Shown: piece by piece, positions 14,740 through 33,374 of the stretch
How the letters are laid out: the number at the start of each line of letters is the position of its first letter
Numbering within the stretch: the first letter of the stretch is position 1
Source: an uncultured Planctomycetaceae bacterium
Lineage (GTDB): Bacteria > Planctomycetota > Planctomycetia > Planctomycetales > Planctomycetaceae
Length of the DNA: 64,000 nucleotides
Direction: 5' to 3'
NCBI GenBank assembly: GCA_963813715.1
Contig: CAWFAK010000005.1
Coordinates: 64,001-128,000, forward strand
Notes under the pieces: model-generated
The model's database searches: none
Told to the model about the DNA's origin: nothing
The model's input: only the letters and a program-made list of their open reading frames with translations
Translations under genes and position numbers: made by a program

Positions 14740-17700
14740 CTAGCCGTTGAGGATCTCGACGGCAGCCGAGAAGCCCGCCCACTGATTCTGGGAGTCGTCC
14801 GACGTGGACGTGGGGGGCGACGTCAGCGTGCCGGCGGTCTGCGGCTGAGAACCCGGCGAAGTGGGGCCGCTTGAGCCTACGGTCACCTGGATGGCGCCCG
14901 AAGCCGTGAGCGAATTTCCCAAGTCCGTGTAGCCGATCGCGATCGATGCCGAGCCGACGTAGCCCGTCAACGGCGTGAACGTGAGGTTCTTCAGGGCGTT
15001 GTTGAGGTTGGCCAGCGTACCCGTGATCGTCATCCCCGACGAGCTATTTGCGCCGGAGGTGAAGGTCAGCCCGGTCGTCGAACCGAGCTTGAGCTTGCCG
15101 TTGGTCGCGGAGAGCGTGACCTGTTCGATGCCGGTCCCCGCGTTGACGTCGGTGACGCTGATCAGGTCGTTGTTGGTCTTCGTGAACTGCACGGAGCCGT
15201 TCTCGGCGACCGACGCTGTTGACGGAGCCGTCAGCGTGGGCGCCAACGTAGCGATCGAAAGCGAGACGCTGGTCGAGGCGGACAAACCGTCCGGCGGATC
15301 CGAGACGGAAATCGCCAGCGTGTCAGCGCCCGAGTAGTTGGTGTTTGGCTTGTAGGTCAAGCCGTTGAGCGCGTTGTCGAGGTTGGTGACTGTCCCGGTC
15401 ACGGTGAAGGAGGCACTGCTGTTCTTGCCAGTCGTAAACGTCAAACCGCTCGTGCTGCCGAGCTTCAGCGTGCCGTTCGTCACGGAGAGCGTGAGCGATT
15501 CGGTCTTGATCGTGCCGGCGTTGCCGTCGGTAAACGAGATGGCGTTGCTGTTGGCGGCCGAGAAGACCAGCGTGCTGTTCTCGCTGAGCGAACCGGTCGA
15601 GGGAGCGGTGATTGTCGGGGCAGTGGCGGGTGAGATGGTGATCCCGACGTTGCTGGTGGCCGACTGGCCGTCAGTGGTGTCCAGCAGCGAAATCGCCAGC
15701 GTGTCGGATCCGCTGTACCCCGTCGTCGGCGTATAGGTCAGGCCGGTGAGCGCCTTGTTGAGATTGGCCAAGGTCGCGGCGATCGTGAAGGACGAGCTGC
15801 CGTTCTTGCCCGCCTTGAAGGTCAAACCGGGAGTCGAGCCGAGCGTCAGGATGCCGTTGGTGACCGAAAGGCTGAGCGTGCCGGTTGTCGAATTGGCGTC
15901 GGCGACCGTAATCGCATTGCTGTTGGTCGATGAGAATACGATCGTGACGTTTTCGCCCGTCGCGACGGACGTCGGCGCGGTAATCGTCGGCGGGCTGAGG
16001 GCGTTGATCGTCAGCGCCACGCTGGCCGAGGCTGACTGCTTGTTGACGCCATCGGCGACCGTGATCGAAAGCACATCGGTACCAACGTAGCCGGCGGTTG
16101 GCTTGTAGGTCAGGCCGGCCAGCGCCGCGTTGAGATTGGTCAGCGTCCCCGTCACAGCGATTGTGGCCGCGTTGTTCTTGCCGGTCGTATAGGTCAGCCC
16201 TGTCGTCGAGCCCAACGTCAGGATGCCGTGCGAGACCGACAGGGTCAGCGACTCGGTCTTGGCCGTGCCGGCGTTCACGTCGGTAAACGAGATGGGGTTG
16301 CCGTTGCCCGACGAGAACACGAGCGAACCATTCTCATTCAGCGAGCCCGTCGACGGTGCGGTGAGCACCGGGGGCTGGACGTTGACGGTGAGGGAGACGC
16401 TGGTTGCCGCCGAGTCGTTGTCGCCCGGATCGGCGATCGAGATCGCCAGCGAATCGGAGCCGATATAGGCGGTCGTCGGCGTGTAAGTCAAACCGTTGAG
16501 GGCGTTGTTCAAGCTGCTGACGGTGCCGCTGACGGTGAACGTCGCGGAGCCGTTGCTGCCCGTGGTGAAGGTCAGCCCGGCGGTTGACGCCAGGGTGAGC
16601 GTGCCGTGCGTCACTGCGAGGGTCAGCGAATCGGCACCGGAACCGGCGCCCGAGTCGGTGACAGAGACGGCGTTACTGTTGCCCGACGAGAAGACGAGTG
16701 AGCCGTCCTCAAAGAGCGAGCCGCTGGTCGGAGCGGTGATCGCCGGCGGGCTGAGTGCGACCACCGTCAGGCCGACGCTGGTCGAGGCCGACAGGGTGTC
16801 TGTGGTGTCGATGACGGAGATCAAAAGCGCATCCGAGCCGATGTAGGCCGGGTTCGGCTGATAGGTCAGTCCATTAAGGGCGTTGTCGAGATCGCTCGTT
16901 GCCCCCGTCACGGTGAAGGAAGAGGTGCCGTTGTTCCCGGAGGCAAACGTCAGACCCGAGGTGCCGGCCAACGTCAGCGTGCCGTGGGTTACGGAGAGCG
17001 TGAGCGAGTCGGGGCCGGCCGCCGAGTCCGTGATCGCAATGGCGTTGCCGTTGCCCGTCGAGAAGACGAGCGATCCATTTTCGCTCACCGAACCGGTGGC
17101 GGGCGCGGTCAAGGTTGGCGGCGCGTTGACCGTCAGCGACACGCTGGTCGACGCGCTCACGTTGGCGAGCGGATCGGAGAGCTGGACCAACAGCGAATCG
17201 GGGCCGGCGTAACCCGTGTTCGGGCTATAAGTCAGTCCGGCGACGGCGGCCTGCAGATCGCCGATCGTGCCGGAGACGGTCATCGAAGAGGAATCGTTGG
17301 CACCGGACGTGAAGGTCAGGTTGTTGGTGGAACCGAGCGCGAGCGTGCCCTGGTTGACCGACAGGGTCAGCGTATCGATGTTGGTGCCGGCGATCTGATC
17401 GGTGATGGTAATGGCGTTGCCGCCCGAGAAGACCAGCGAGGTGTTTTCGTTCGTCGACGCCGAGGCCGGGCCGGTCGCGGTCGGCGACCAGTTGATGTTC
17501 GTATTGGCCAGGTCGGGAACGAGCAGGTTGGCGATCGGCGTGCCTAAGCCGCTCACCAGGTCGTATCCAGGCGCCGCGTTGTAGGTGCCGTTGCCGCCAA
17601 CCGTGATATCGTGGAAGTCGGAGCTGGAAAGGTTGTACAACGTCGGCAAGGTCTGCGTGAGGCCGTTGAGACTTGGCTCACCGTTGAGGGCACGTCCCTG

Positions 17701-18831
17701 ATTGGCGATGGAGACGAGCGCGGCAGTCAACGGCGTGGCGAGGCTGGTGCCACCGACCTGGTACCATCCGCCCGAGTAGGTATCGAGGACGTAAACACCG
17801 GTGTCGGGATCCGCGTCCATCGAGATGTCTGGAACATTGCGATTGGTCGTGCTGGCGCCGTTAATACCGTTCAGCCCGTCCTGATAGGCCGGCAGCGGTT
17901 CGTACTGGCTGATGCCGCCGCCGGTGCCGTAACCGTTGTTGTTGTTCCAGACTGATTCGGAGATGTAAGTGCCGTCGGACTGGATCTGCAACGACGTGCC
18001 GCCGACAGCCACGACGTCCGGCGAGAAGGCGGGATAAATCGCAGGCGAATCCCAGTCGCCGGTTGCGGCCAGGAACGTCACGCCGCCCGTGCGCCCGGTG
18101 GGTGTGAGGTCGAAGGGGTCTTCCGACTGCTCGCCCTGGAATTCGTCCTCGCCCCAGCTCATTGACACGACCGAGACAGCCGGATTGGCGGCAGCGGTAG
18201 CCACGGCCTGGTCCATGTCGGGGTCGTTGTTGGTGTTCGACTCGTAGAGGATGATATTCGCCTGCGGGGCGATTGAGTGGGCCCACTCGACGTCGAGCGA
18301 TTCTTCGACGTCCCAGCCCTGTCCGTTGGTGGTCGGCAACGACGTGCCGCCGGTTTGATTGAGCACCTGGAAGGTCGGACCGCCCTGAACGTTGAACTGC
18401 GGCAGATTGAACGTGCTGCTGAAGTTCTGTGCGTCGGTGACGATGTTGGGGTCGTTGTACGCGTCGACGATGGCGATCGTCTGACCTGCGCCGGTGCCGC
18501 TGACGCCGTTAAACGAAATCTGGTTCACGCCGTAAGCAGTGGTCATTTGGGCCGGCGTGTAGGGGGCCGAGGCGACCGTCGTAGCCGGAGTGACGCCGTT
18601 TTTGCCGACGTTCGGCGCGGCAACCTGGCCGGCCACGATGATCGCCGGCTGATAGGCGGCGACGGCCGAGAGCATTTGCCGCGCTTCGAGGGCTTCGACG
18701 ACGGGCCCGCAGCAGACGGGCTGCTGCATGCGGTCAAGTTCTCGTTGATTTCGCCGGCGGGGCACCTTGCGGCCGCGGTAGGTATTTCCTCGGGTCTGCG
18801 AAAAAATCGACAGCCGGCGAGAGAACAGCAT
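14740..18831 (-). CDS. S53 (sedolisin-like) peptidase with planctomycete LExR motif and 7 beta-rich ~120-aa repeats (paralog 1)
   Basis: LEARQMLS; EESLD (Glu/Asp), AATGD, GGTSLATP (Ser), GYDLVSGLGTP; repeats PxxTAP..ENxxLxF..GLTYxP. Confidence 0.88.
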   Translation of the reverse strand: MLFSRRLSIFSQTRGNTYRGRKVPRRRNQRELDRMQQPVCCGPVVEALEARQMLSAVAAYQPAIIVAGQVAAPNVGKNGVTPATTVASAPYTPAQMTTAYGVNQISFNGVSGTGAGQTIAIVDAYNDPNIVTDAQNFSSTFNLPQFNVQGGPTFQVLNQTGGTSLPTTNGQGWDVEESLDVEWAHSIAPQANIILYESNTNNDPDMDQAVATAAANPAVSVVSMSWGEDEFQGEQSEDPFDLTPTGRTGGVTFLAATGDWDSPAIYPAFSPDVVAVGGTSLQIQSDGTYISESVWNNNNGYGTGGGISQYEPLPAYQDGLNGINGASTTNRNVPDISMDADPDTGVYVLDTYSGGWYQVGGTSLATPLTAALVSIANQGRALNGEPSLNGLTQTLPTLYNLSSSDFHDITVGGNGTYNAAPGYDLVSGLGTPIANLLVPDLANTNINWSPTATGPASASTNENTSLVFSGGNAITITDQIAGTNIDTLTLSVNQGTLALGSTNNLTFTSGANDSSSMTVSGTIGDLQAAVAGLTYSPNTGYAGPDSLLVQLSDPLANVSASTSVSLTVNAPPTLTAPATGSVSENGSLVFSTGNGNAIAITDSAAGPDSLTLSVTHGTLTLAGTSGLTFASGNNGTSSFTVTGATSDLDNALNGLTYQPNPAYIGSDALLISVIDTTDTLSASTSVGLTVVALSPPAITAPTSGSLFEDGSLVFSSGNSNAVSVTDSGAGSGADSLTLAVTHGTLTLASTAGLTFTTGSNGSATFTVSGTVSSLNNALNGLTYTPTTAYIGSDSLAISIADPGDNDSAATSVSLTVNVQPPVLTAPSTGSLNENGSLVFSSGNGNPISFTDVNAGTAKTESLTLSVSHGILTLGSTTGLTYTTGKNNAATIAVTGTLTNLNAALAGLTYKPTAGYVGTDVLSITVADGVNKQSASASVALTINALSPPTITAPTSVATGENVTIVFSSTNSNAITVADANSTTGTLSLSVTNGILTLGSTPGLTFKAGKNGSSSFTIAATLANLNKALTGLTYTPTTGYSGSDTLAISLLDTTDGQSATSNVGITISPATAPTITAPSTGSLSENSTLVFSAANSNAISFTDGNAGTIKTESLTLSVTNGTLKLGSTSGLTFTTGKNSSASFTVTGTVTNLDNALNGLTYKPNTNYSGADTLAISVSDPPDGLSASTSVSLSIATLAPTLTAPSTASVAENGSVQFTKTNNDLISVTDVNAGTGIEQVTLSATNGKLKLGSTTGLTFTSGANSSSGMTITGTLANLNNALKNLTFTPLTGYVGSASIAIGYTDLGNSLTASGAIQVTVGSSGPTSPGSQPQTAGTLTSPPTSTSDDSQNQWAGFSAAVEILNG

Positions 18832-18901
18832 GCTTCGGGCTCCAACGGCTAATTGGGCAATGGGTTGTGATTCGGAGGGATGCTGCAAGCGCGACTCGAA
18901 G

Positions 18902-18919
18902 GGTGCTGGCCCAAGCACC
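18902..18919 (-). promoter_or_regulatory. Conserved upstream hairpin motif, paralog 1
   Basis: Sense strand GGTGCT-TGGGCC-AGCACC, 71-88 nt upstream of the inferred ATG; similar motifs precede paralogs 2 and 3. Confidence 0.5.
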
Positions 18920-19218
18920 GGGCGCGTAGGAAGAACTCCTGACGCCATTCGAGAGTCGTGCCTCACAGTTTGCCGTCGCGAGGAGCCGGTGACAACGCGC
19001 CGGTCGCGAGATTTCTGTGAATTTTCTGAAGGGAAGCAGGCCGCTCTAAGAACCGAACGTCAATCGCGGCAGAAGTGGACAGACGAGCACGGTAAAACGC
19101 CAGAAACCATGCGCGCCCGGATGGTTTTCGACCGTCCCCGTAGCGCGCGCTGCCTTCCATCTGCGGCGCACCGGAGGTCACCGCGGAAATTCGTTCACGC
19201 GAACGACCGGCGCGGACG

Positions 19219-22200
19219 TTAGTTGATCAGGAACTCGAGGGCTTGGAGAAAGCCAGCCCATTGAGTCTGTGCGTCGATCGGTGTGGACGCGTCCCCGTCG
19301 GCGCTTCCGCCCGTCGTGGCGGGATTGGTCAGCGACAGGGTCGCCCCTCCGGTCACCGGCACAAACTGGCGGTCGCCTTGCACCGGAGCCGGCGTCACAA
19401 CGAGCGAGCGGGATGCCCGGCCGTTGCGGCTAACGGTGAGGGCGATGCTGCCTGTGCCTGTCAGGCCGTCACCCGCGTCCGTGTAGCTCAGTGAGATCGA
19501 GGCCGAACCGGTGAAATTTCGAGTCGGCGTGTAGGTGAGGCCGTTGAGGGCGTTGTTGAGATTGGTCAGCGTGCCGCTGATCGTCATCGAGGCAGAGCGG
19601 TTAGCCCCGGATGTGATCGTGATGCCGCTCGTCGATCCGAGACGCAGGGTGCCGTGCGTGGCTGTGAGCGTCAGCTTCTCGGTGCTGGTGCCCGCGCTGG
19701 CGTCGGTGATGGTGATCGACTTGGAGAAGGCGACGGAGCCGTTCTCGGCGACCGAGGCTGTGGCTGGAGCCTTGATCGTCGGCGCGACAGCCGCGTTCAC
19801 GGTGAGGGTCACGCTATCCGACGCGGACAAACCATCGCCCGGATCGGAAATCGAGATCGACAGCGAATCGGAGCCGGAATAATTGGTCGCCGGCTTGTAA
19901 ACCAGTCCATTGAGAGCCGCGTCGAGGTTGGCGATCGTTCCGGTCACCGTCACCGTCGACGAACCGTTCGCGCCGGCGGTGATCGTCAGGCCGGAGGTGG
20001 AAGCCAAGGTCAGCGTGCCGTGCGTGACGGCCAGGGTCAGCGAGTCGGTGCTGCCGGCGCTCGAGTCGGCGACTGAAATCGCGTTGCCGTTGGTCGACGA
20101 GAAGGTCAGAGAACTGTTCTCGTTGAGCGAACCGCTCGTGGGAGCGGTGATCGCGGGCGGGACTGGCGGCCGTAACGGTCAGGCCGATGCTGTCCGAATC
20201 CGAGAGGCTATCGCCCGGATCGGAAAGTGAAATCCCCAGCGTGTCCGAGCCGGAATAGCCGGCCGTCGGCTGATACGTGAGGCCGTTGAGGGCCGCATTG
20301 AGGCTGGACAAAGTGCCGGTCACGGTGAACGCCGCCGTGCCGTTGCCGCCCGTCGTAAACGTCAGCCCGGTCGTCGAGGCGAGCGTCAGAATTCCGTTCG
20401 AGACCGTGAGCGTGAGCGAATCACTGCCGCTGCCGGCGCTCGCATCCGTCAGCGTGATGGCGTTGCCCTTGCCCGTCGAGAAGACGAGCGAGGAATTCTC
20501 AGCGACGGTGGCCGTACTGGGAGCAGTGATCGTCGGCGGCGTGGGCGCGTTCACGCTCAGCGACACGCTGGCCGAGGCCGACAGGCTGTCGCCCGGATCG
20601 GTGACCGAAATCGCCAGCGAATCGGAGCCGGCATAACCCGCAGTCGGCTGATAAACGAGTCCGGCGAGCGCCGCATCGAGGCTTGAGACGGTGCCGGTCA
20701 CAGTGAACGAGGACGAGTCGTTGCTGCCAGATGTGAAGGTGAGTCCCGACGTGGTCGACAACGTCAACGTGCCATGCGAGACGGACAGCGTCAGCGAATC
20801 GGCGTTGGTGCCGGCGCTCGCGTCGGTGACGCTGATGGCGTTCCCGTTGGCCGACGAGAAGGTCAACGAGCCATTTTCGGCCAAGCTTGCCGACGCGGGG
20901 GCGCTGACGCTCGGCGGTTGCGTTGTGCCGTATCCCGCCAGGGCGGGGACGAGCAAATTGGCGATTGGCGTGCCCAGTCCGGTGACCAGATCGTAACCCG
21001 TCCCGGCCGAGTAGGTGCCGTTGCTGCCGGTTGTGATGTCGTGGAAGTCGGAACTGGGCAATTGGTAGAGCGTCGGCAGTGTTTGCGTCGCGCCGTTGAG
21101 GGATGAATCGCCCAAGAGGGAGCGTCCCTGGTTCGCGATGGCGATCAGGCCGCCCCACATCGGCGTCGCGAGGCTCGTCCCGCCGACCTGGAACCAGCCA
21201 CCGTCGTAGCTATCGAGGACGTAGACGCCGCTGTTGGGGTCGGCATCCATGGCGACGTCGGGCACGTTGCGATGCGTCGTGCTCGCACCGTTGACGCCGT
21301 TGAGCGAGCTTTGATAGCTGGGGATGGTCTCGTATTGGCTGATCCCGCCGCCCGTATCGGACCAGGCGCCCTCGGCGATGTATTGGCCGCTGCTGTTGAT
21401 ATCCAAAGTCGTGCCGCCGACGGCCACGACGTCGGGACTGAACGCCGGATATCCCGAAGGCGTGCCGTCATCGCCGGTGGCCGCCAGGAAAGTGACGCCC
21501 TGATGACCGTTGGGCGTGACGAAGTTGGAATCGAAGCCGGTCTCCGAGGAGCTTTCGCCGCCGTCCCAGCTCATCGACACGACCGAAACGCCGGCGTAAT
21601 CGGCCGCCGTGTCGACGGCCTGGAACAGGTTCGCGTCGGAGTTGGAAGAAGCCTCGAAGAGGATGATGTTCGCATCGGGGGCGATCGAGTGAGCCCACTC
21701 GACGTCGAGCGCTTCTTCAACGTCCCAGCCCCCCTTGGCCGCGTTGGCCGGCAGCGACGTGCCGCCCGTTTGATTCAGGACCTTGAGCGTGGGCTCGCTG
21801 CTGCCGTTGAACTGCGGCAGACCGAATTGGCTGCTGAAGCTATTGGCGTCGGAAATGATGTCCGGATCGTTGTACGCGTCGACGATGGCGATCGTCTGGC
21901 CGGCCCCGGTTCCTGCGACGCCGTTAAAGGAAATCTGGTTGATCCCGTAGGCCGCCTGCATCTGGGCCGGATCGATGGGGGCGGTGCCGGCCGTGACAGC
22001 CGGTTTGTTGGTCGCCGCGCCATGGGCCTCGAGAATAAAGGTCGGCGTGGCGACGGCGGTGAGGGCGGACGCGGCAGAGAGCATCTGGCGGCCTTCGAGC
22101 GTCTCGGCGGCCGGACCGCAGCAGACCGGCTGGCCGATGCGTGCCGCGTCGCGTCGACGTTTCAGCGGTCGACGAGAGCGGGAGGACGACGGGCGGACGA

Positions 22201-22237
22201 AGTTGGACAAAAACGGAAACCGAAGCGACAACAGCAT
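19219..22237 (-). CDS. S53 peptidase with LExR motif and 4 beta-rich repeats (paralog 2; apparent frameshift near 20160)
   Basis: LEGRQMLS, EEALD, AATGDDG, GGTSLATP, GYDLVTGLGTP. ORFs 19814..22363 and 19219..20007 join in repeat 3. Confidence 0.87.
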
Positions 22238-22304
22238 CCTACCGGCCTCCTGTGGCGGGTGAATTTGACCGTCAGGTGTTCGCCAAACACGAACTGAGTC
22301 AGAA

Positions 22305-22322
22305 GGTGCCGGCCCAGACACC
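22305..22322 (-). promoter_or_regulatory. Conserved upstream hairpin motif, paralog 2
   Basis: Sense strand GGTGTC-TGGGCC-GGCACC, 68-85 nt upstream of the ATG. Confidence 0.5.
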
Positions 22323-22330
22323 CGTCCTAA

Positions 22331-22353
22331 AGAAAATCGTCGGACGATTTTCT
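22331..22353. promoter_or_regulatory. Perfect 11-bp inverted repeat, candidate operator
   Basis: AGAAAATCGTC-G-GACGATTTTCT in the intergenic region upstream of paralog 2. Confidence 0.5.
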
Positions 22354-22436
22354 GCCCAGTCACACCAATAGTCTGCCCGTCGGCGAACTGGAGATCAACT
22401 TAGCCCAATTACGTCAAAAAGTGCTTCCAATCAACC

Positions 22437-25400
22437 TCAACCGGCCAGCACTTGCATTGCGGCCGCAAACCCCGCCAGCTGCGTTTCGGAGTCCGGAGGC
22501 AGGGTGCTGGTCGAGAGCGAGTTAGCCGAAGGGACGCTCGACGAGGCCGGTCCCGCGGGCGCGCCTGCCTGCAGGATCGTGCTCGACGAGACGGTGATGT
22601 TGGCCGTCACCGACTGGTTGGTTGCGAGGTCGGTGTAGGCCAGGGTGATCGTTGCCGCCTTCGCCTGCAGCGTATAGGTCATCCCGTTGAGGGCCAGATT
22701 CAGGTTGGCCAGCGTTCCCTCGATGGTCATCGACGCAGAACCATTGGCCCCGGAGATAAACGTAATCCCAGTCGTGCTGGCGAGTTGCAAGATGCCCGAA
22801 GTCGCCTTGATTGTCAGTTCTTCGGTGCTGCTGCCGGCGCTCCCGTCGGCAATGCTGATCGCATCTCCCTTGGCGGCGGAGAAAGTGGTCGTGCCGCCAA
22901 CTGTCGACCTGACGCTGGTCGGTGCGCTGATCGAAGGCGGGGCACTACCCGAAACGTTGATCGACACGCTGGCCGAGCCCGACAGGTGATCCGCCGAATC
23001 ATTGATCGCCACGGCGAGCGAGTCGGCACCCGTATAGTTGCTGGTCGGCTTGTAGGTCAGTCCGGCAAGCGCCGCGTTGAGGTTGGTGATTGACCCCGTG
23101 ACCGTGACCGTGGACGACCCGTTAGCGCCGGCCGTGATCGTCAGGCCCGAGATCGTCGACAAAGTCACCGTGCCATGCGAGACCGTCAACTGCAGCGAAT
23201 CCGAACCGCTTCCCGGCCCTGCATCCGCGACTGAAATCGGGTTGCTGTTGCCCGACGAGAAGACCAGCGAGCCGTTCTCAGGCACCGTAGCCGATCCCGG
23301 AGCTGAAACCGTCGGCGGGCTGTTGGCGTTGACCGTGATGGCCACGCTCTTCGAGGCCGACTCGCTGTCGCCGGGGTCCAAGAGAGAAATCGCCAGCGAA
23401 TCGGAGCCGGTGTAGCTGGTCGTCGGCGTATAGGTAAGGTTGTTGAGGGCCGCATTCAAACTGGTGACGGCGCCGGTCACGGTGAAGGACGCCGAGCCGT
23501 TGCTCCCGGCCGTAAACGTCAGGCCGCTGATCGTCGAGAGTGTGATCGTCCCGTGAGCGACCGACAGGGTCAGCGTATCGCTGCTGCTGCCGGCCGCCGA
23601 GTCGGCCACGCTGATCGCGCTCGAGGAGAAGATCAGCGAATTGTTGACGAGCACCGAGGCCGTCGCCGGCGCGGTAATCGTCGGCGCCGGCAAGGAGTTG
23701 ATGCTCAGCGAAACGTTCTTCGAGGCCGACTGGCCATCGCCCGGATCTTGGAGCGAAATCGCCAGCGTATCGCTGCCCGTGTAAGCGGCCGTCGGCTGGT
23801 AGGTAAGGCCGTTGAGGGCCGCGTTGAGGTTGCCGACCGTGCCACTCACTGTGAAGGTGGCCGAACCGTTGCTGCCGGACGTGAACGTCAGACCGGACGT
23901 GGTGGAAAGCGTCAGTTTGCCGTGCGCGACCGCCAGCGTGAGCGAGTCGCTGCCGGGATTGGCGTCGGCGAGCGAGATTGCGTTGCCGTTGCCGGTCGAG
24001 AAGGCCAGCGACCCGTTCTCCGTGAGCGAGGCCGAAACTGGCGCCGCGATCGTCGGGGCCAGCGCGCTGACTGTGATGGCCACGCTGCCAGAGCCAGTTT
24101 TGTTGTCGGTCGGGTCGCTGACGGAGAGGGCCAGCGTGTCGGAACCGGCGTAATTCGTCGTCGGCTGGTAGGTCGTTCCTACCAGGGCGGCGTTCAAGTT
24201 GGCTACGGTCCCCTTGACCGTGAAGGCGGCGGAGTCGTTCGAGCCCGAGCTGAAAACCAGTCCATTGGTGGTGCCCAAGGTCAGGGTGCCGTGGCTGACC
24301 GACAAACTCACCGAATCTGCGCCGAAGCCCAACCCGTCGTCGGTCAGCGAGATCAAGTTGCCGTTACCCGTCGAGAAGACGAGCGAGCCATTCTCCGCTA
24401 CGCTAGCCGTAGAAGGCGCCGTGAAGGTGGGGGCGATCGGTGCGACCGTGATCGAAACGCTGGAGGAGCCGGTCAGGCTTTCGCCTGGGTCGGTTAGCGA
24501 CACCAGCAGCGAGTCGGCGCCGCTGTAATACGTGGTCGGTTGATAGGTCAGACCGGAACTGTCCAGATCCGCGTTCAGGTTGGCGATGGTCCCGCTCACC
24601 GTGAACGAAGAGGAGCCGTTCGTCCCGGACGTGAACGTCAGGCCGGTGGTCGAGCCGAGCGTCAACGTTCCGTCGGAGACCGAGAGCGTGAGCGAATCGG
24701 CAGCACCGGCGGAGAACGGATCGGTCAGGGTGATCGCGTCGCTGTTGGCCGTCGAGAGTGTCGCCGACCCGTTTTCGGCCACGTTGAGCGTGGACGGGTT
24801 GCTCACGGCAGGCGCAGTCGAACCGTATCCCGCCAACGCGGGCACGAGCAGATTGGCGACGGGAGTGCCCAGCCCAGTGACCAGATCGTAACCCGGCGCA
24901 GCCGAGTAGGTGCCGTTGCTGCCGGTCGTGACGTCGTGGAAATCGGAACTCGGCAGGCTGTAGAGCATCGGCAGGGTTTGCGTGTACCCGTTGAGCGTCG
25001 ATTCGCCCGCGAGCGCCCGTCCCTGGTTGACGATGCCGATCATGCCGGCCCACAACGGAGAACTGAGGCTCGTGCCGCCCACCTGGAAGTAGCCGCCACC
25101 TTGCCCTTCGTTCCATGTGTCATAGACGTAGACGCCACTGTCGGGATCGGCGTCAGCCGAGACGTCGGGAACGTTACGGTTCGTGGTGCTCGAGCCGTTG
25201 ATGCCGTCGAGGTTGTCCTGGTAATAGGGCAGCGCTTCCTGCGTGCTGATGCCGCCGCCCGTGGCCCAACCATTGTTGTCGTTCCAAACCGATTCTGAGA
25301 TGTACGTGCCGCTGTTCTGAATCTGCAGGTTGGTGCCGCCCACGGAGACGACGTAGGGCGAGTACGCCGGATAGCCGGCGGGGCTGCCCGAGTCGCCGGC

Positions 25401-26183
25401 CGAGGCCAGGAAGGTGACCCCCTGGTGGCCGGTCGGCGTCTGGAAGTATTGGTCTTCGGAAGTCTCGCCGGAGAATTCGCCTTCGCCCCAGCTGTTGGAG
25501 ATCACGGAGACGCCGGGCCAACCGGCGGCGGTGACTTCGGCCTGGTCCATGTCCGGGTCGTTGGCCGTGGTCGACTCGAACAGGATGACGTTGGCCTCCG
25601 GCGCCATCGAGTGCACCCACTGCACGTCGAGTGATTCCTCGAGGTCCCAGTCGCCGACTGTCGTGTTGGTGTTCATCGGCAGCGTCGTGCCGCCGTTTTC
25701 GTTCAGCACCTGAAACGTCGGACCGCCGGAGTTGAATTGCGGCAAGCCGAATCGCGTGTTGAAGGTGGCCGTGTCGGAGACGATGTTCGGATCATTGTAG
25801 GCGTCGACGATGGCGATCGTCTGTCCGGCGCCGTTGCCGACAATTCCGTTGAAGGAAATCAGGTTCACGCCGTAGGCCGTCTGCACCTGCGACGGCGTGT
25901 AAGGCGCCGAGGCGTTGTCGGGCGAATTCGTGGGCTTCACGCTTCCAGGAGCCGCGACGCGGCCCAGGTTGATCAACGTCGGCACGGCGATGCCGGCGGC
26001 GGTGGCGGAAACGGCCGCCGAGAGCATTTGCCGCCCTTCGAGTTCCTCGACGGTCGGTCCGCAGCAAATCGGACCAGGAATGAATGCCGTGTCTCGTCGG
26101 CTGCGTCGACTCAGGTGCCGCTTGAACCGGACAGGCTTGGACCCGATTTTGCGCGAAATCGTGAGCCGCCTAGAAAACAACAT
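22437..26183 (-). CDS. S53 peptidase with LExR motif and 6 beta-rich repeats (paralog 3)
   Basis: LEGRQMLS, EESLD, ASAGDSG, GGTSLSSP, GYDLVTGLGTP. Confidence 0.88.
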   Translation of the reverse strand: MLFSRRLTISRKIGSKPVRFKRHLSRRSRRDTAFIPGPICCGPTVEELEGRQMLSAAVSATAAGIAVPTLINLGRVAAPGSVKPTNSPDNASAPYTPSQVQTAYGVNLISFNGIVGNGAGQTIAIVDAYNDPNIVSDTATFNTRFGLPQFNSGGPTFQVLNENGGTTLPMNTNTTVGDWDLEESLDVQWVHSMAPEANVILFESTTANDPDMDQAEVTAAGWPGVSVISNSWGEGEFSGETSEDQYFQTPTGHQGVTFLASAGDSGSPAGYPAYSPYVVSVGGTNLQIQNSGTYISESVWNDNNGWATGGGISTQEALPYYQDNLDGINGSSTTNRNVPDVSADADPDSGVYVYDTWNEGQGGGYFQVGGTSLSSPLWAGMIGIVNQGRALAGESTLNGYTQTLPMLYSLPSSDFHDVTTGSNGTYSAAPGYDLVTGLGTPVANLLVPALAGYGSTAPAVSNPSTLNVAENGSATLSTANSDAITLTDPFSAGAADSLTLSVSDGTLTLGSTTGLTFTSGTNGSSSFTVSGTIANLNADLDSSGLTYQPTTYYSGADSLLVSLTDPGESLTGSSSVSITVAPIAPTFTAPSTASVAENGSLVFSTGNGNLISLTDDGLGFGADSVSLSVSHGTLTLGTTNGLVFSSGSNDSAAFTVKGTVANLNAALVGTTYQPTTNYAGSDTLALSVSDPTDNKTGSGSVAITVSALAPTIAAPVSASLTENGSLAFSTGNGNAISLADANPGSDSLTLAVAHGKLTLSTTSGLTFTSGSNGSATFTVSGTVGNLNAALNGLTYQPTAAYTGSDTLAISLQDPGDGQSASKNVSLSINSLPAPTITAPATASVLVNNSLIFSSSAISVADSAAGSSSDTLTLSVAHGTITLSTISGLTFTAGSNGSASFTVTGAVTSLNAALNNLTYTPTTSYTGSDSLAISLLDPGDSESASKSVAITVNANSPPTVSAPGSATVPENGSLVFSSGNSNPISVADAGPGSGSDSLQLTVSHGTVTLSTISGLTITAGANGSSTVTVTGSITNLNAALAGLTYKPTSNYTGADSLAVAINDSADHLSGSASVSINVSGSAPPSISAPTSVRSTVGGTTTFSAAKGDAISIADGSAGSSTEELTIKATSGILQLASTTGITFISGANGSASMTIEGTLANLNLALNGMTYTLQAKAATITLAYTDLATNQSVTANITVSSSTILQAGAPAGPASSSVPSANSLSTSTLPPDSETQLAGFAAAMQVLAG

Positions 26184-26245
26184 CCCCAGACTCCTGCAAC
26201 AGGTGCGCGATTCGGGCGGAAAAGCGAGAGGAAACACGGCCCGAC

Positions 26246-26263
26246 GGTGCCGGCCCAGCGCCC
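26246..26263 (-). promoter_or_regulatory. Conserved upstream motif, paralog 3
   Basis: Sense strand GGGCGC-TGGGCC-GGCACC, 63-80 nt upstream of the ATG, flanked by GACGG/CCGTC. Confidence 0.45.
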
Positions 26264-26458
26264 GTCTGAAGAAATGAAAGGCGTCGCTAGTTTCGCCGAC
26301 GGCGAGGCAGAGATCAAGACTTAACGCGCGTCACTTATCCAAAATCCGCGCAGCACAATTAGTCCCCGTCAAAGTCCCCCGGCATCGGTCCCCACGGATG
26401 GTCTCGCGACCACGTCAGACACCCAAGCTGGGCGACTTCGGGCCGGGTGCTCGTGCGT

Positions 26459-29400
26459 TTAGACTTCGGAGTCGGGCGGGATGGAACTCGTTGCGGGGCC
26501 AGTTGTTGTGTTTGACGACGGCGAATTTCCCAGGGTCGTATTCCCGAAGAGGGTCACCGTGGTGGAGGACGTTCCCTGCCCTCCCGTCACCAGGTTGGTG
26601 TAGACCATCCCGATCGTCTGACTCTTTCCCGTGAGCGTATACGTCAGCGTGGCAAGGGCGGCGTTGAGGTTGGCCAGCGTTCCCTGGACGACCATCTGCA
26701 TCGAGTTGTTGGCACCTGACACAAAAGTCAGCCCGGTGGTCTTGCTCAGGTTCAGTGTGCCCCCCGAGTCCTTGATCAGGAGCTGTTGCACGCCAGTCCC
26801 GGCGCTCGGGTCCGTGATGCTGACCGCGTCGGTCCCGGTGAAGCTCACCGCGTCGGATCTCGTCAAGATGGCCGTGGGCGCCTTGATGGCCGGCGCCGTG
26901 CTGCCGGTGACACTTAACGTGACGTTGGCGGAAGCCGACTGCCCATCGGACGAATCCTTGATCGCCACCGACAGCGTGTCGGGACCTGTGTAGCCGGTCG
27001 ACGGCTGATAGACCAAGCCGTTCAAGGCCGCGTTGAGATTGACCAGCGAACCGGTGACAGTGATCGTGGTCGAGCCGTTCGCTCCCGAGGTGACGGTCAA
27101 CCCCGTGGTGCTTGCCAGCGTCACCGTGCCGTGGGAAACGGTGAGCGTCAGCAAGTCGGAACCGTTCCCGGGACCACTGTCGGCCACCGAGACGGCATTG
27201 TCGGTGGCCGGCTCGAAGACCAGCTCTCCGTTCTCACTGACCACGGCGCCGCTGGGAGCCGTGATCGTCGGGGGCAAGAACGCGGTAATCGTCAGGGCCA
27301 CACTGGTCGACGCCGACTCATTGTCTCCCGAATCGGAAATCCCAATCGAGATTGCAGCGGCACCCGAGTAACCGGACGTGGGACGATAGATCAGACCGTT
27401 GAGCGCGGCATTGAGGTTGGCAAGCGTGCCGGCCACGGTGAACGAGGCCGTGCCGTTGGTCCCGGCCGTAAAGGTGAGCCCTGTCGTGGAGGCCAAGGTC
27501 AACGTGCCGTGAGTGGCGGTGAGCGTTAGCGAGTCGGTGTTGGCGCCGATCCCCGTGTCGGCGACGGCAATCACATTGCCGTTCGTCGCGGAGAAGGTCA
27601 GCGATCCGTTTTCGGCGAGAGCGGCCGTGGCGGGCGCGGTGACGCTCGGCGGAGCCAGGCCGACAATGCTCAGCGACACGTTCGCGGAAGCGGACTTGTT
27701 ATCGCCCGTATCGGTGATCGTGATCGCCAGCGTGTCGGCGCCGGTGTAGCCCGATATCGGCTGGTAGGTCACGCCGTTGAGGGCCGCATCCAAGTTGGTG
27801 ACGGTTCCGCTCACGGTCATCGAGGCGGAGTCGTTGCTGCCGGCCGTGATCGTCAAGCCGGTCGTGCTGGCCAAGGTCAGCGTGCCGTGCTGCACCGAGA
27901 GCGCCAGCGAATCGGTGCCCGGATTGGCATCACTAACGGTAATGCCGTTGCCGTGGGAACTCGCGAAGGGCAGCGCGGTGTTCTCATTCAGCGAGGCGCT
28001 CGACGGAGCTGTGATCGTCGGAGCCAGAGCATTGACAGTCAGCGCGACCGACGCGGAACCCGACTTGCCGTCATTCGAGTCCACCACCGAGATCGACAGC
28101 GTGTCCGAACCGGCAAAACCGGTCGCCGGCTGATAAGTCAAACCGTTGATGGCGGCGTTGAAGTTCGCCACCGTCCCCTTCACGCTGAACGAAGAGGAGC
28201 CGTTGAAGCCGCTGACGAACACCAGTCCGTTGGTCGAACCAAGGGTCAAGATGCCGCTGGAGACGGACAGCATCTCCGTATCGGCGCTGGTGCCGGCGCC
28301 GTTGTCCGTCAGGGTGATCGGGTAGCTGCTGGTTGTCGAGAAGGTGAGCGTGCCGTTCTCGATGACGGCGGCCGTTATTGGCGCGCTGATCCCCGGAGCG
28401 GCGATCGCGTTGATGGTCAGCGCAACGCTGCTGGTGGCCGACAGGCCGTCCCCCGGATCGCGGAGCAACACGGTCAACGTGTCCCCACCGGTGTAACTGA
28501 AGTTGGGCTGGTAGCTCAGGCCATCGAGGGCGGCGTTGAGATTGCCGATCGGCCCGCTGACGGTGAACGAGTTGGAGCCGTTGGTGCCGCTGGTGAAAGT
28601 CAGGCCGGTTGTCGCTCCCAGCGTCAGGGTGCCGTTTGCCGCGGAGACGGTCATCGAATCGGAGCCGCTCGCGCCGAGGTCAGTCACGCTAATCTCGTTG
28701 CCGAAAGCCGAGGAGAAGGTGAGGGCCGTATTCACGGTCGTGCTGCCGGTCGACGGACCGCTCACGGTGGGTAGAGCCTTCACGCTGAGCGAGACGGAGG
28801 TCGCGGAGGACTTGCTGTCCGCCAGGTTGGTAATCGTCAGGGACAGCCCATCAGAGCCGAAGTAATTAGCCGTGGGCTGGTAGATCAGGCCGTCGAGCGC
28901 CATGTTGAGGTTGCTGAGCGAGCCGGTCACGGTGAACGAACTTGTGCCGTTCGTGCCCGACGTGAAGGTCAAGCCGAAGGTCGTGTGCAACGAGAGCGTG
29001 CCGTGCGTGACAGAGAGCGCCAGCGCATCGCCGCCAGCGTTGACGTCGCTGACGGAAATCGAGTTGCCGTTCCCCGTCGAGAAGACGAGCGACTGGTTGG
29101 CCCCGACGATGGCCGAACTCGGCGCAGAAACCAGCGGCGCCAAGGCGTTGACGATCAGCGAAACGGTCGTGCCGCCGGAGAGATTGTCCGCCTGGTCCTG
29201 GTCCGAGAGGCTCAGCGTGTCGGTGCCGTAGAATCCCGCGGTCGGCGTATATGTGAGGCTGGCCAGATCGGCGTTGAGGTTCGGCAGCAGGCCGGTCAGG
29301 ACGACGGTCGCGCTGTTGTTTCCCGTCACCGTCAGCCCGGTCGTCGTTGCCAGATCGAGCGTGCCGTCGCCGACCGACAGCGTCAGCTGCTCGTCCGAAC

Positions 29401-32400
29401 CGCTCACGTCGCCTACGGTGATCGCATTGCCGGCAGTAAAGGTCACACTGCCGTTTTCGGCGACGCTAATGCCGCCGGTGGGAGCCGTGATGGTGGGAGA
29501 CACCGGCACCACGGTGATTGACACGGTGGTCGTTCCCGTCAGACTGTTGCCGGTATCCGTGTCGGACAGCGACAGCACGTCGGGGCCGAGGTAGCCGGAC
29601 GTCGGCGTGTAGGTGAGGGTCGCCAGGTCACTGTTCAGGTTGGACAGCGAGCCGGTCAGCGTGAGCGAGGTGGAACCGTTGCCGACGACCGTCAGTCCGG
29701 TCATCGTCCCCAGAGTAAGGGTGCCGTTGGTCACCGAGAGGACCAGTTGTTCGGCCGTCCCACTGGGATCGACGACGCTGATCGCGTTGCCCCCGCTCAA
29801 CGTCAGGCTGCCGTTCTCGTTGACCGTCACGCCTGTGGGGACTTTGAACGTCGGCGCGACCGGGGTAATCGTGATCGAGACGCTGGCCGAGTTGATCAAC
29901 TCGTCGGTCGTGTCCTTCACGGAGAGCGACAGCGTGTCGGCGCCCAGGTAACCGGTGGTCGGCGTGTAGACGAGCGTGGGCAAGTCGTTATTGAAATTGG
30001 TCAGCGAACCGGTCAGGGTCAGCGTTTTCGTGCCGGCTCCGGACACCGTGAGGCCCGCCGTGGTGGTCAGGTTGAGCGTGCCATTGCTCACAGTGAGCAC
30101 CAGCTGCTCGGCCGTGCCGCTGGTGTCCGCAAGGCTGATCGCATTCTGCCCGTTGAAGACGAGAGTGCCGTTCTCGTTAACGCTGACGGCCAAGGGCGCG
30201 GTGATGGTCGGAGCGAACGCGGTGTTCGAGAACGGGTTGGAGGCGATACCGTCCGCGATGACGACAATCGTGAACGGGTCGTTGCCGATGGCGGCCGGCA
30301 GCACGACGTTGGCCGTTTCGGGCGTGCTGCCGGTGGCGACGCCGACCGAGCTCCAATCTGAGGTCGTCGCGTAGTAAACGGTCCCCGTGCTGGTGTCGAC
30401 CACCCGCACGATGGGATAGTTCTCCGCCATCTGGTTGTCGTCGCCGTAGGACGCCCCTTCGTCGAGTCCGTTGAGCTGCGTTCCCGTCAGCGTGTAGTCG
30501 TTGCCACTCTGCTGCGTGAAGCTGGTGATGGTCGGTTGCCAGGACGCCTGCGGACTCCCGTTGGGCGTGTAGACGGCGAGCTGATTGTTGTCGTCGGTCA
30601 GCAGCAGCTGTCCCGTCGGCAGGATGAGGAACGTATTGATAAAGCTGTTACTGTCACTGAGGAACGGATCGACGGTCGCCGAGGGCGTAATGTTCGTCCA
30701 GACGTCGGCCGTCGTGTTGAGGTCGTAGATATAGGTCGGCCCCGGGAATTGTTCCTCCCCGGTGTTGTCGATGTAGACCGCGGGCGAAAGCGCCAGCACG
30801 ACGTCCCCATTGGGCAGGATGGCGCCCGGCGCGTCGCCTGTCGTAAGCTGCGTCATGACGCCGTTGATCATGACAGAGGGCATCGTCGGGCCCTGCGTCC
30901 AGGAGTTCGTGCCTGGATTGTAGAGCGCGGTCGTGCCGTTGGTTCCAGTGAAGAGCGCGTCTCCATTGGCCAGCAGAAGCGCGGGGCCCAACTCATAACC
31001 CGTGCCCTCCGTCGAGAGCAGGGGAATCGTGCCGACCGTGCTGCTGGCGTCGGACCAGGTATTCGTGCTGGGGTTATACAGCTCGGCCTCGAACTTGTTG
31101 TCGGTGATGCTCGAGAAGAGGTCGTAGGTGAGGATGTCGCCGTTGGCCAGCTTCACCCACGCCTCCTCGTCGCTCTGGTCGTTGTGGACCTTGGTGCCGC
31201 CCGCGCTCCACGCATTCGTGGTTGGGTCGTAAATCTCGGTGCCGTTGTCTTCGATGTCGCCCACGAGGACGTTGCCATCCGGCAGGAGCTCGGTCGGTTC
31301 GTCCCCGACAATCGACTTCGGACTGCTCGCCACCATCGTCCACTTGCTGGTGACCGGATTGTAGATTTCGGCGGAATTCGAGAAATTCTCGTCGGTCGCA
31401 TACTCGCCGCCCACGACGAAGACTTCGCCGTTAGGCAGCACGGTGGACCCGAAATAAAGACGTCCGACATTCATCGAGCCCGCCACCGTCCAGGTCCCGT
31501 CGACGTAGCTGCCGGTGCTGTCGGGCGTGACCAGATACCAACTGGTAGAAGGGCCGTTGCCGCCGCCTCCATGCACGAAGAGTTGACCGTTGGGAAGCAA
31601 AAGACTCAACTGGCCCGCGTCCCCCTGCGGAACCGCGTTCGACATGGCGGTCCAGTTCTGCGACACCGGCGCGATGACGGTCAGCGGCACGGTCTTCGAC
31701 GCCGATTGGTTCGTCCCCGGATCCAGCAACGTCACCGACAGCGTATCGCCGCCCAAGTAATTGGTCGCCGGCTGAAAGGTCAGCCCGTTGAGGGCGGCGT
31801 CCAGGTTGGTGACCGTTCCGCTCACCGTGAACGAAGCCGAATTGTCGGTGCCGCTCGTGAAGGTGAGACCGTTGGTCGTCGCCAGGCTCAACGTCCCATG
31901 CAACACGGCAAGGGAGAGCGAGTCGGCATTGGTGCCGGCACTCGTGTCCGTGACATCGATGGCGTTGTTGTCGGCCGTGGAAAACGTCAGCAAGTTGTTT
32001 TCTTCGGTGCCGGTGGCCGTGGGGGCAGTGACTTTCGGCGGTTGCTGCGAGCCGTAGCCGGCCAAGTCCGGGACCAGCAAGTTGGCCTTGGGCGTGCCCA
32101 GGCCGGTCACCAGGTCGTAGCCGACGCCGGCGCTATAGGTGCCGTTGCTCCCGGTCGTCACGTCGTTGAAGTCGCTGCTCGGCAGTCCATACAGCATGGG
32201 CAACGTTTGCGTGGCCCCGTTGAGCGTTGTCTCGCCGGCGAGCACGCGGCCCTGGTCGGCGATGGCGATCATGCCGGCCCACAAGGGACAAGCCAGACTG
32301 GTGCCGCCGACGTCGATCCATCCGTTCGCGCCGTACGAGTATGAGTCGTAGACATAAACGCCGGTATTGGGGTCGGCGTCGGCGGACACGTCGGGCACGT

Positions 32401-33374
32401 TGCGATTGGTCTTGCTCGCTTGGTTGACCCCGTTGATGCCGCTCTGGAAGCTGGGCAGCGTCTCGTAGATGCTGGTGCCGCCGCCCGTATCCGACCAGGC
32501 GCTTTCGGAGACGTAGGCGCCGCTGGATTGAATTTGCAGATTCGTCCCGCCGACCGCGACAACGTCGGGAGAGAACGAGGGATAGCCGGCCGGCGTGCCG
32601 TCGTCGCCCGTGGAGGCCAGAATCGTGACGCCCTGATGGCCGGGCGGAGTGATGAAGTACGAGCTGTCGTCCTGCGTCTCGGTCGAGTACTCGCCGCCAC
32701 CCCAGCTGTTGGAGATGACGGACACTCCCGGGAAGCCCGCTGCTGTCGCCTCAGCCGTGTACAGGTCGCTTCCGTTAGGCGAATTCCCCTCGAAGAGAAT
32801 GATGTTGGCCTGCGGGGCCATCGAGTGCACCCACTCGACGTCGAGCGACTCTTCGACATCCCAGCCGAATTGTGGCGCGTTTCTGCGGCAGCGTGGTGCC
32901 CCCGTCCTCGTTGAGCACGCGGAACGTCGGTCCGCCCGCGACGTTGAACTGCTGCAGGCCGAATTGAGTGCTGAAGGTGGCTGCGTCGGAAATGATGTTC
33001 GGATCGTTGTAAGCGTCAACGATCGCGACCGTCTGTCCGGCTCCCGTTCCCACCACGCCGTCGAACGAGATCGCGTTGACGCCGTAGGCCGTCGCGACCT
33101 GCACGGGAGTGTAGGGACCCTGGCTACTGGGTTGCGAGGCCGGGGAGGCCATCGGTTTCACGTTGGGATTGATGACAAACGTCGGGACCGCGGTGCCGAG
33201 CACCGCTGGCGTGACGGCCGAGAGCATCTGCCGCCCTTCGAGTTCTTCGACGGTGTGTCCGCAGTAGGCGGGTCCGGGAAAGAAAGCCGAGTCGCGTCGT
33301 CCGCGCTGTCGCGCACGCTTGCGTGGTTTAACAGGCGCGATTTTGCGCAGACTCAGACGCTTCGGAAAAAACAT
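26459..33374 (-). CDS. S53 peptidase with LExR motif, Kelch-like propeller and 11 beta-rich repeats (paralog 4; apparent frameshift near 32881)
   Basis: LEGRQMLS, EESLD, ASTGDDG, GGTSLACP; seven LxxG-type blade motifs at about 30230-31660. ORFs 32775..33374 and 26459..33019 join. Confidence 0.87.

Follow-up and report, generated by a model that had tools for sequence, protein, structure and literature searches.

A tandem cluster of S53 peptidases in a Planctomycetaceae bacterium carries a cysteine-containing variant of the planctomycete LExRxLL leader and lacks the kumamolisin-type prodomain

Introduction

The element described here most closely resembles the LExRxLL leader of Planctomycetota, which is modelled as Planc_extracel in Pfam (PF07595) and as LEPR-XLL in NCBIfam (NF012209). 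This leader has been catalogued since 2004, and we know of no work in which its export route has been shown. We examined a variant of it on four S53 peptidases encoded in tandem in a 64,000-nucleotide stretch of DNA (hereafter the window, G000:C5:64001-128000) from the genome of an uncultured Planctomycetaceae bacterium (hereafter the source genome; 7.49 Mb, 18 contigs, 82.6% complete). We consider it likely that these four proteins are exported, probably surface-displayed peptidases, in which the leader would act as an export tag, the catalytic domain would fold without a prodomain, and the C-terminal repeats would form a stalk.

For R. baltica, Studholme et al. (2004), as cited in PMC8567305, put forward the form RRLxxExLExRxLLA as a putative, novel signal for export at the N-terminus. 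PMC8567305 itself reports 52 genes with a variant of the motif in T. immobilis, with 20 products detected by proteomics and 8 found solely in the sodium dodecyl sulfate-soluble fraction. The motif is likewise treated as a signal peptide in PMC3343278 and PMC10952558. A secondary SecA_DEAD locus with proteins resembling type 1 secretion systems has been described computationally (Kamneva, Poudel & Ward 2015, PMC4452313).

On the enzyme side, the nearest relatives are kumamolisin, sedolisin and TPP1 (MEROPS S53; PDB entries 1gt9, 1sio, 1t1e, 1ga1 and 3edy), with which the window proteins share 31-33% identity, a subtilisin-like fold, and a Ser-Glu-Asp triad with an oxyanion Asp. A prodomain is typical of characterized S53 members, though it is not part of the definition of the peptidase unit. 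The S53 family and the repeats are known already, as is the leader motif (2004; modelled in both Pfam and NCBIfam), and homologs of the window proteins are labelled "S53 family peptidase" or "subtilase family serine protease" in public records; the basic picture is unchanged in that respect. Judging from the parts of the literature accessible to us, the size of a prodomain-less Planctomycetota S53 clade and a genus-restricted cysteine in the leader appear to be unreported.

Results

Four S53 peptidases without a prodomain

The list of open reading frames (ORFs) and phmmer searches against PDB identified four tandem, head-to-tail, minus-strand genes, g1 to g4 (Table 1), as encoding kumamolisin-like S53 peptidases. 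Residues 90-438 of g1 align to residues 5-352 of mature kumamolisin-As (E = 4e-33), and its EESLD, GD, and GGTS stretches align to the Glu/Asp, oxyanion Asp, and Ser motifs of kumamolisin, which we take to be the catalytic residues of that enzyme. In an alignment of 59 sequences, E182/E183, D186, D264, and S372 are invariant, and all are present in g4 too. An AlphaFold2 model of g3 residues 1-470, based on the 59-row alignment, had a mean predicted local distance difference test (pLDDT) score of 72.5 and a confident catalytic domain from residue 83. Foldseek matched this model to kumamolisin (E = 1.2e-24, target TM-score 0.78-0.80), followed by sedolisin and TPP1, while the Pfam Peptidase_S8 model gave no score in any of the four proteins. 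Collectively, these comparisons show an S53 fold with an intact catalytic tetrad for these putative peptidases.

The original prediction held that only about 80-95 amino acids precede the catalytic domain and that the Pro-kuma_activ prodomain (PF09286) would be absent, and both points were confirmed. The catalytic domain opens with a conserved YTPxQ, found at residue 91 in g1, 95 in g3, and 88 in g4, and 87-94 residues precede it. These are too few to accommodate the 143-position prodomain in addition to a leader. PF09286 had no match in the whole proteins g1 to g4 at E<=0.1 or in their N-terminal pieces at E<=10, and a six-frame search of the source genome, at its 82.6% completeness, returned 0 matches; the same search recovered its positive control in Sulfolobus, 1 of 14 control genomes. 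In pro-kumamolisin 1t1e, by contrast, some 188 residues stand before the mature enzyme, and g1 aligns to the chain only from residue 189 onwards, past the prodomain. The window proteins also differ from kumamolisin in having no Sec signal peptide and in their long C-terminal tandem immunoglobulin (Ig)-like repeats and conserved tail. A literature search on sedolisins without a propeptide found no paper on a prodomain-less bacterial S53 enzyme in the portions of text that were accessible.

The repeats resemble those of tandem-95/Big_9 proteins (NF012211, PF17963), which carry C-terminal arrays of repeats of about 95 residues; here, they are joined to a protease and terminate in a tail specific to this family, D-x4-WAGF-x2-A-x-E-x-L. 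Big_9 scored 25.4-50.3 bits within the repeats (cut-off 23.6), with 50.3 bits for g1. The tandem-95 model was passed by g4 (109.1 bits, cut-off 90), and g1 to g3 fell below the cut-off at 30.6-72.5 bits (71.9 for g1).

An LExRxLL leader in the place of a signal peptide

The four proteins begin with MLFSRRL, MLLSLRF, or MFFPKRL-type starts, followed by an Arg-rich stretch and then by the motif P(V/I)CCGP..E.LE.RQMLS in g1 to g3, with a PAYCGH variant in g4. The N-terminal sequences on which the original prediction was based, PVCCGPVVEALEARQMLS, PVCCGPAAETLEGRQMLS, PICCGPTVEELEGRQMLS, and PAYCGHTVEELEGRQMLS, are read exactly so in the four ORFs. Its description of an Arg-rich leader without a hydrophobic core holds for the leader proper, with a weak stretch following the motif. 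The 44-47 residues before the motif contain 10-12 Arg and Lys versus 2-3 Asp and Glu, and their best 10-residue Kyte-Doolittle mean is 0.64-1.58. In the AlphaFold2 model, g3 residues 1-82 have pLDDT values of <50 and no secondary structure. Taken together, hydropathy and the model suggest that a Sec-type hydrophobic core is absent before the motif.

To define conservation, 74 unique leaders were anchored on the L of LExR (position 0); these came from 78 complete leaders among 120 homologs listed. E(-2) was present in 68, L(0) in 73, E(+1) in 74, R(+3) in 74, L(+6) in 74, S(+7) in 67, and A(+8) in 72 of the 74 leaders. With its core conserved in 67-74 of 74 leaders, the motif can be identified, as had been proposed, with the planctomycete LExRxLL motif. 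It shares with Planc_extracel/LEPR-XLL an N-terminal position after an Arg-rich stretch, the lack of a hydrophobic core, and the core hExLExRxLL[SA] (h, hydrophobic). Across the 19 motif codons, pairs of the four copies differ by 2-7 synonymous and 3-6 non-synonymous codons, which argues that the stretch is constrained as protein.

The expected matches to the two curated models did not materialize. The window copies, which read LE(G/A)RQMLS, lie below both cut-offs: PF07595, with its cut-off of 25.5, gave 11.5-12.2 bits for g1 to g3 in the protein search and 13.0-14.4 bits for all four copies when the genome was searched, and NF012209 had no match for the four copies at E<=10. An NCBIfam scan of the four N-termini returned only a chance DPOR_bchN match. 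For PF07595, the best site anywhere in the source genome reached 19.8 bits. NF012209 was passed by eight other sites in the source genome, among them a fifth S53 paralog (C5:858051-858095; 22.2 bits, cut-off 17), and the cluster to which that paralog belongs, P0098, lines up with the window copies in every column. We scanned for the motif with fixed DNA patterns. ExLExRx[LM]L[STA] was found at 22 sites in the source genome versus 2 for the reversed control, and Cys-x4-E-x-L-E-x-R-x-[LM]-L-[STA] at 7 versus 0, with the g1 leader matching at G000:C5:82668-82711; per genome, reversed controls gave 0-4 chance matches to the short pattern and 0-1 to the long one. In a six-frame motif scan, some two dozen further long ORFs of the source genome showed the same layout: a start that is short and either hydrophobic or aromatic, a spacer rich in Arg, and then hExLExRxLL[STA]. 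Like Planc_extracel/LEPR-XLL, which occurs on large surface-type Planctomycetota proteins, this leader class is also found on proteins other than proteases, such as a Malectin-domain protein. On the sequence evidence, the leader of g1 to g4 is a lineage variant of the known planctomycete leader, standing in place of a Sec signal peptide.

Most of the LExR leaders listed from the source genome also have a Trp/Phe patch a few residues after the Met (SW, PW, RW, KWF), a second conserved leader element that is covered by neither PF07595 nor NF012209.

One trivial explanation would be a mis-called start: the Met of RQMLSA would be the true initiation site, and the leader before it would be untranslated. 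Among the 120 listed homolog records, 29 begin at MLSA or LLLSA or further downstream, from which it follows that gene callers often pick a start at or beyond MLSA. We give this explanation hardly any credence, as M1, E49, R51, L54, and A56 are invariant in the 59 sequences, the paralogs differ by synonymous codons, and 44 of the 74 leaders have RxLLS with no Met at all.

A more substantial alternative is an atypical Sec or twin-arginine translocation (Tat) signal peptide, in which the basic stretch and LExR would form an oversized n-region and the segment after the motif (MLSAVAAYQPAIIVAGQVAAP) a weak hydrophobic region (h-region), handled by the ordinary translocon and signal peptidase I. 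This segment, which lies after residue 55, consists of about 20-25 uncharged residues rich in Ala, Val, Thr, and Pro, with a 10-residue hydropathy maximum of 1.67-2.07. Arg pairs lie upstream, and two related clusters, P0161 and P0200, show a conventional hydrophobic N-terminus at this position (maxima 2.81 and 2.98). Several observations make this alternative rather improbable. A hydrophobic stretch after the motif is absent from many LExR proteins, and in a sixth S53 paralog (C7:824994) the catalytic start TPAEMRQAYG directly follows LEDRALLSAI. Between the Arg pairs, which precede the motif by 17-20 residues, and the weak segment there are acidic residues, and TAT_signal (PF10518) had no match in the N-termini at E<=10. 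Within the segment, a Pro is conserved (P68 in >=90% of the 59 sequences), and AlphaFold2 placed no helix in residues 1-82.

A cysteine seven residues before the motif

The original prediction drew attention to a conserved CCGP upstream of LExR. CC(G/A)P is indeed kept in close homologs, with exact CCGP in 19 of the 74 leaders, but the conserved unit proved to be a single cysteine, Cys(-7), which is present in 56/74 leaders, is largely confined to a subclade and a genus, and has been lost repeatedly. A cysteine at -8 was found in 26/74 leaders and CC in 26/74, CxC in 7/74, and any cysteine at -14 to -5 in 59/74. Cys(-7) is the most conserved position before the motif, the best Arg column reaching 54/74. 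It is flanked by V, I, or A at -9, by C, A, D, or G at -8, and by G or A on its other side, and in 18/74 leaders S, W, Y, A, or V stands there instead. The R. baltica consensus, in contrast, has Arg where these leaders have Cys (usually CC) at -8/-7. In the accessible parts of the literature found on the motif, a cysteine is not mentioned.

The proteins are otherwise nearly free of cysteine. Cysteine makes up 0.18% of residues in the homologs overall and 0.06% after the motif, compared with 1.28% in long ORFs of the source genome with high G+C content at third codon positions. The two leader cysteines (residues 40 and 41 in g1) are the only ones in g1 (1363 amino acids), g2 (~1004), and g3 (1248), and all cysteines are confined to the leader window in 35 of the 74 homologs. 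Cys(-7) is also present on three proteins of the source genome that have no tblastn match to S53 there: an unknown 480-amino-acid ORF, a 1125-amino-acid Malectin-domain protein, and a 388-amino-acid protein with an E1_FCCH-like domain. In two of these three, the leader cysteine is the only one downstream of the likely start.

Genome-wide, Cys(-7) was found at 7/22 motif sites in the source genome. It was also found at 39/222 motif sites in 11 other genomes of the same genus, with at least one in 11/11 genomes, at 1/86 sites in 9 genomes outside the genus, and at 10/728 sites in 60 other genera of the family; these sums were added from per-genome tables, and related genomes are non-independent samples. 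A general rule of a cysteine before LExR in this leader class was accordingly rejected, since 10/728 is about the background cysteine frequency of 1.28%. Among the wider S53 representatives, Cys(-7) was present in 9/77 complete leaders, all close to the window genes, and in 12 of 79 named loci, ten of which are the nearest loci from Planctomycetaceae metagenome-assembled genomes (MAGs).

A FastTree phylogeny was built from the catalytic parts, excluding the leader; on it, the state of Cys(-7) changes 14 times versus a mean of 16.3 in shuffled data, and 39 of 500 shuffles were as low. At least seven of the changes are forced by well-supported branches. Cys(-7) looks ancestral to this S53 subclade and lost repeatedly, and such repeated loss indicates that it is not essential. 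Going by its distribution, Cys(-7) is a genus-level addition to the leader that is under selection, because it is kept in otherwise cysteine-free proteins and on several kinds of cargo. Its presence on unrelated cargo and its retention in cysteine-purged proteins, yet dispensable, point to a role intrinsic to the leader: these patterns suggest that Cys(-7) is most likely a recognition or processing determinant of the leader, and a link to protease latency is unlikely.

The cysteine might also serve as a covalent handle, through lipidation or through a disulfide or thioester with a partner or exporter, leading to N-terminal anchoring. Lipoprotein signal peptides carry a lipobox and are processed by the Lgt/LspA pathway, and what they share with these leaders is a single conserved Cys towards the end of the N-terminal region that targets the protein, small or aliphatic residues before it, and a protein otherwise poor in cysteine. 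The residues at -9 and -8 and the G or A after Cys(-7) loosely resemble lipobox positions -2, -1, and +2, and the cysteine is often the sole one of the protein. The lipobox pattern [LVI][ASTVI][GAS]C itself does not occur, as P-V/I-C or Q-V-A/G precedes the Cys. The position three residues before the Cys is P, Q, S, or A rather than L, V, or I, there is no h-region before it as in Lgt/LspA substrates, and it lies before the LExR motif, not after it. The substitutions in 18 of 74 leaders and the background frequency in LExR leaders outside the genus also argue against a handle. We therefore regard chemical use of the cysteine, whether as an acylated N-terminal anchor or as a transient thiol-linked intermediate with a leader-processing or export machine, as unlikely. 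If true, it would be the first chemical clue to the handling of this orphan planctomycete leader. Independent of its role, the genus-restricted Cys variant offers a handle for mass spectrometry and point mutation.

Prodomain absence across a Planctomycetota clade

To place the window proteins among S53 enzymes, relatives were collected in three ways. A word-index search gave 3179 relatives among 8000 scored candidates; an exhaustive search with the S53 domain as query gave 21,742 hits at E<=1e-3 among 50%-identity representatives; and a scan of 185,579 species' genomes gave at least 574 relatives among 601 candidates. Among the matches listed were members of Planctomycetaceae, Tepidisphaeraceae, Isosphaeraceae, Gemmataceae, Pirellulales, Thermoguttaceae, Schlesneria, Singulisphaera, and Humisphaera. 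No S53 relative was found at E<=1e-30 in 150 evenly drawn genomes of the phylum, and the clade is therefore patchy.

The best 150 of the 21,742 representatives were sorted by the catalytic-start marker GxGxTIAIVD, which was present in 144 and absent from 6. The catalytic domain is internal in 11 and starts <=150 residues from the N-terminus in 133. Of the latter, 88 have an LExRxLL leader, 21 have LExRxxP, a variant known from Gemmata-type planctomycetes, 2 have a hydrophobic, signal-peptide-like N-terminus (P0161 and P0200), and 22 are truncated or of other types. Among 79 loci kept from the species' genomes, 61 have LExRxLL and 7 have LExRxxP within 120 residues of the catalytic start, with 7 having neither and 4 lacking the marker. 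P0161 and P0200 likewise lack the prodomain. By sequence, the absence of the prodomain is a trait of the whole clade. It follows from these surveys that the leader stands in for a signal peptide and that prodomain absence is independent of the leader.

This bears directly on the proposal in the original prediction that a non-Sec export or processing signal replaces the S53 propeptide. On this view, as we develop it here, the leader would be a short inhibitor or folding aid that keeps the protease latent until processing, with the Cys pair as part of the switch. The leader does sit at the pre-pro place of kumamolisin, the prodomain is missing, and the Cys is conserved in the S53 subclade. This proposal now seems highly unlikely, since the leader's position is that of a signal peptide and leaders of this class, the Cys(-7) form among them, are found on Malectin-domain, E1_FCCH-like, and unknown non-proteases, while clade members with hydrophobic N-termini have no prodomain either. 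In the AlphaFold2 model, residues 1-82 are not docked on the catalytic domain, and the Cys has been lost at least seven times. A large S53 clade that apparently folds without the prodomain typical of the family is relevant to protease biochemistry and to the production of enzymes.

We also considered the S53 enzymes as dedicated LExR leader peptidases. This was rejected, as none of the 150 evenly drawn phylum genomes has a relative at E<=1e-30, although several have many motif sites, and 6 genomes of the same family are without any of the S53 enzymes.

Proposed export of the S53 proteins and candidate machinery

For the exported, probably surface-displayed peptidases that we favor, the leader, with its Met-Leu-Phe-type start, Arg-rich spacer, and hExLExRx[LM]LSA, would mark the protein for export and drive it through a route other than classical Sec. 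The leader would then be removed, and the catalytic domain would fold without an intramolecular chaperone. A candidate route is a secondary SecA_DEAD / PqqD-like-M50-HlyD / GAF-HlyD gene set encoded elsewhere in the genome. The components of the SecA_DEAD locus described by Kamneva and colleagues are represented in the source genome, which encodes a SecA_DEAD protein that lacks the wing domain, a fusion of PqqD-like, M50, and HlyD domains, additional proteins with HlyD, and one with GAF. The housekeeping SecA is on contig C6, and the second gene, with SecA_DEAD, PP_bind, and P-loop domains and split into two ORFs, is at G000:C9:212681-213864 (L084). The fusion, a 741-amino-acid protein with weak PqqD-like (19.8 bits versus 23.4), weak M50, and HlyD domains, is at G000:C16:408000-414000 (L085), where it adjoins further HlyD and GAF proteins and has an LExR beta-helix protein 6-10 kb away. 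In contrast to the published locus, the SecA-like gene (C9) and the M50-HlyD and GAF genes (C16) are apart, and neither set is near the S53 cluster. When the g3 leader (residues 15-75, supplied with an alignment) was modelled in complex with residues 1-200 of the PqqD-like/M50/HlyD fusion, the prediction scored 0.00 against a mark of 0.32, which is evidence neither way.

Several points weigh against this reading. Export, cleavage, and localization of the S53 proteins are predictions only. All four leaders score below the curated cut-offs of PF07595 and NF012209, and no site in the source genome passes PF07595. The uncharged Ala/Val/Thr-rich segment after the motif is a possible weak h-region, at least seven changes of Cys(-7) are forced by well-supported branches, and the candidate exporter genes are not beside the S53 cluster, with none in the window. 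The leader naturally sits on an assayable class of enzyme, and an S53 protein could be used as an export reporter.

Genes, assembly state, and neighborhood of the cluster

The features of the cluster are listed in Table 1.

Table 1. Features of the S53 cluster, in window coordinates
Feature	Position	Strand	Description
g1	14740-18831	-	S53 gene, 1363 amino acids; kumamolisin match E 4e-33
g1 architecture			leader, linker, catalytic domain, tandem ~95-amino-acid Ig/cadherin-like repeats, conserved C-terminal tail
g1 leader	18667-18831 (motif 18667-18720)	-	residues 1-55, MLFSRRL..., Arg-rich, PVCCGPVVEALEARQMLS
g1 S53 catalytic domain	17482-18576	-	phmmer against PDB; query of the S53 homolog search
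g2	19219-22237	-	S53 paralog, ~1004 amino acids, one frameshift at ~20157-20162
g2 leader	22076-22237	-	residues 1-54, ends PVCCGPAAETLEGRQMLS
g3	22437-26183	-	intact S53 paralog, 1248 amino acids, identical to P0001
g3 leader	26019-26183	-	residues 1-55, ends PICCGPTVEELEGRQMLS
g4	26459-33374	-	S53 paralog, ~2300 amino acids, Kelch-type propeller before repeats, frameshift ~32881-32886
g4 leader	33219-33374	-	residues 1-52, ends PAYCGHTVEELEGRQMLS, single Cys (PAYCGH)

Two of the four genes are interrupted in the window. Residues 1-691 and 693-1004 of P0038 match g2 in two different frames at 99% identity, and residues 1-163 and 165-853 of P0016 match g4 in two frames. Parts of the window stretch are present in 20 soil-metagenome runs of 17 studies. 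At the g2 site, contigs of 4/4 other soil-metagenome runs compared have one base fewer at 20159-20161, and at the g4 site, contigs of 3/3 runs covering it have one base fewer at 32880. As the contigs of other runs lack the extra base, g2 and g4 are intact in near-identical strains. The extra bases of the window are either assembly errors or strain-specific, and such single extra bases suggest indel errors in the window assembly. Further single extra bases of the window, relative to contigs of three or four independent soil-metagenome runs, are at 26352 and 26376.

The cluster has counterparts within the genus. In one genome (G209:C6:359964-375641), four Cys(-7) leader sites are spaced 7.2, 5.0, and 3.4 kb apart, the corresponding spacing in the source genome being 7.2, 3.9, and 3.4 kb, and in another (G210:C1:190448-201131) three Cys(-7) leader sites lie in a row. 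These tandem runs show that the paralog cluster is conserved within the genus.

Between its S53 domain and repeats, g4 has a Kelch or galactose-oxidase-type beta-propeller (~30300-31730, minus strand; Kelch_1 55.1 bits), an insert common to homologs P0016, P0028, and P0103. The C-termini of g1, g2, and g3 share the tail D-x4-(W/L)AGF-x2-A-x-(E/Q)-x-L-x-x-stop (14743-14805, 19222-19285, and 22440-22500, minus strand), which is also in the consensus of the 59 homologs. In the source genome, this pattern stands at an ORF end in g1, g2, and g3 only, a fourth match being far from any stop, and g4 ends early with PPDSEV-stop and has no tail. The tail may be a sorting or docking element.

A domain scan of all 38 window ORFs outside the cluster found no export or processing genes around it; the neighbors include a multicopper oxidase, an alcohol dehydrogenase, a GAF histidine kinase, and metabolic genes. 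Elsewhere in the window, at 43595-47765 on the plus strand, genes for a Peptidase_C39_2-like protein, an RLAN (RimK-like ATP-grasp N-terminal domain) protein, a glutamate-cysteine ligase of family 2, and an N-formylglutamate amidohydrolase lie in a row; they may together be a small cluster for ligating or modifying peptides, with no relation to the S53 genes.

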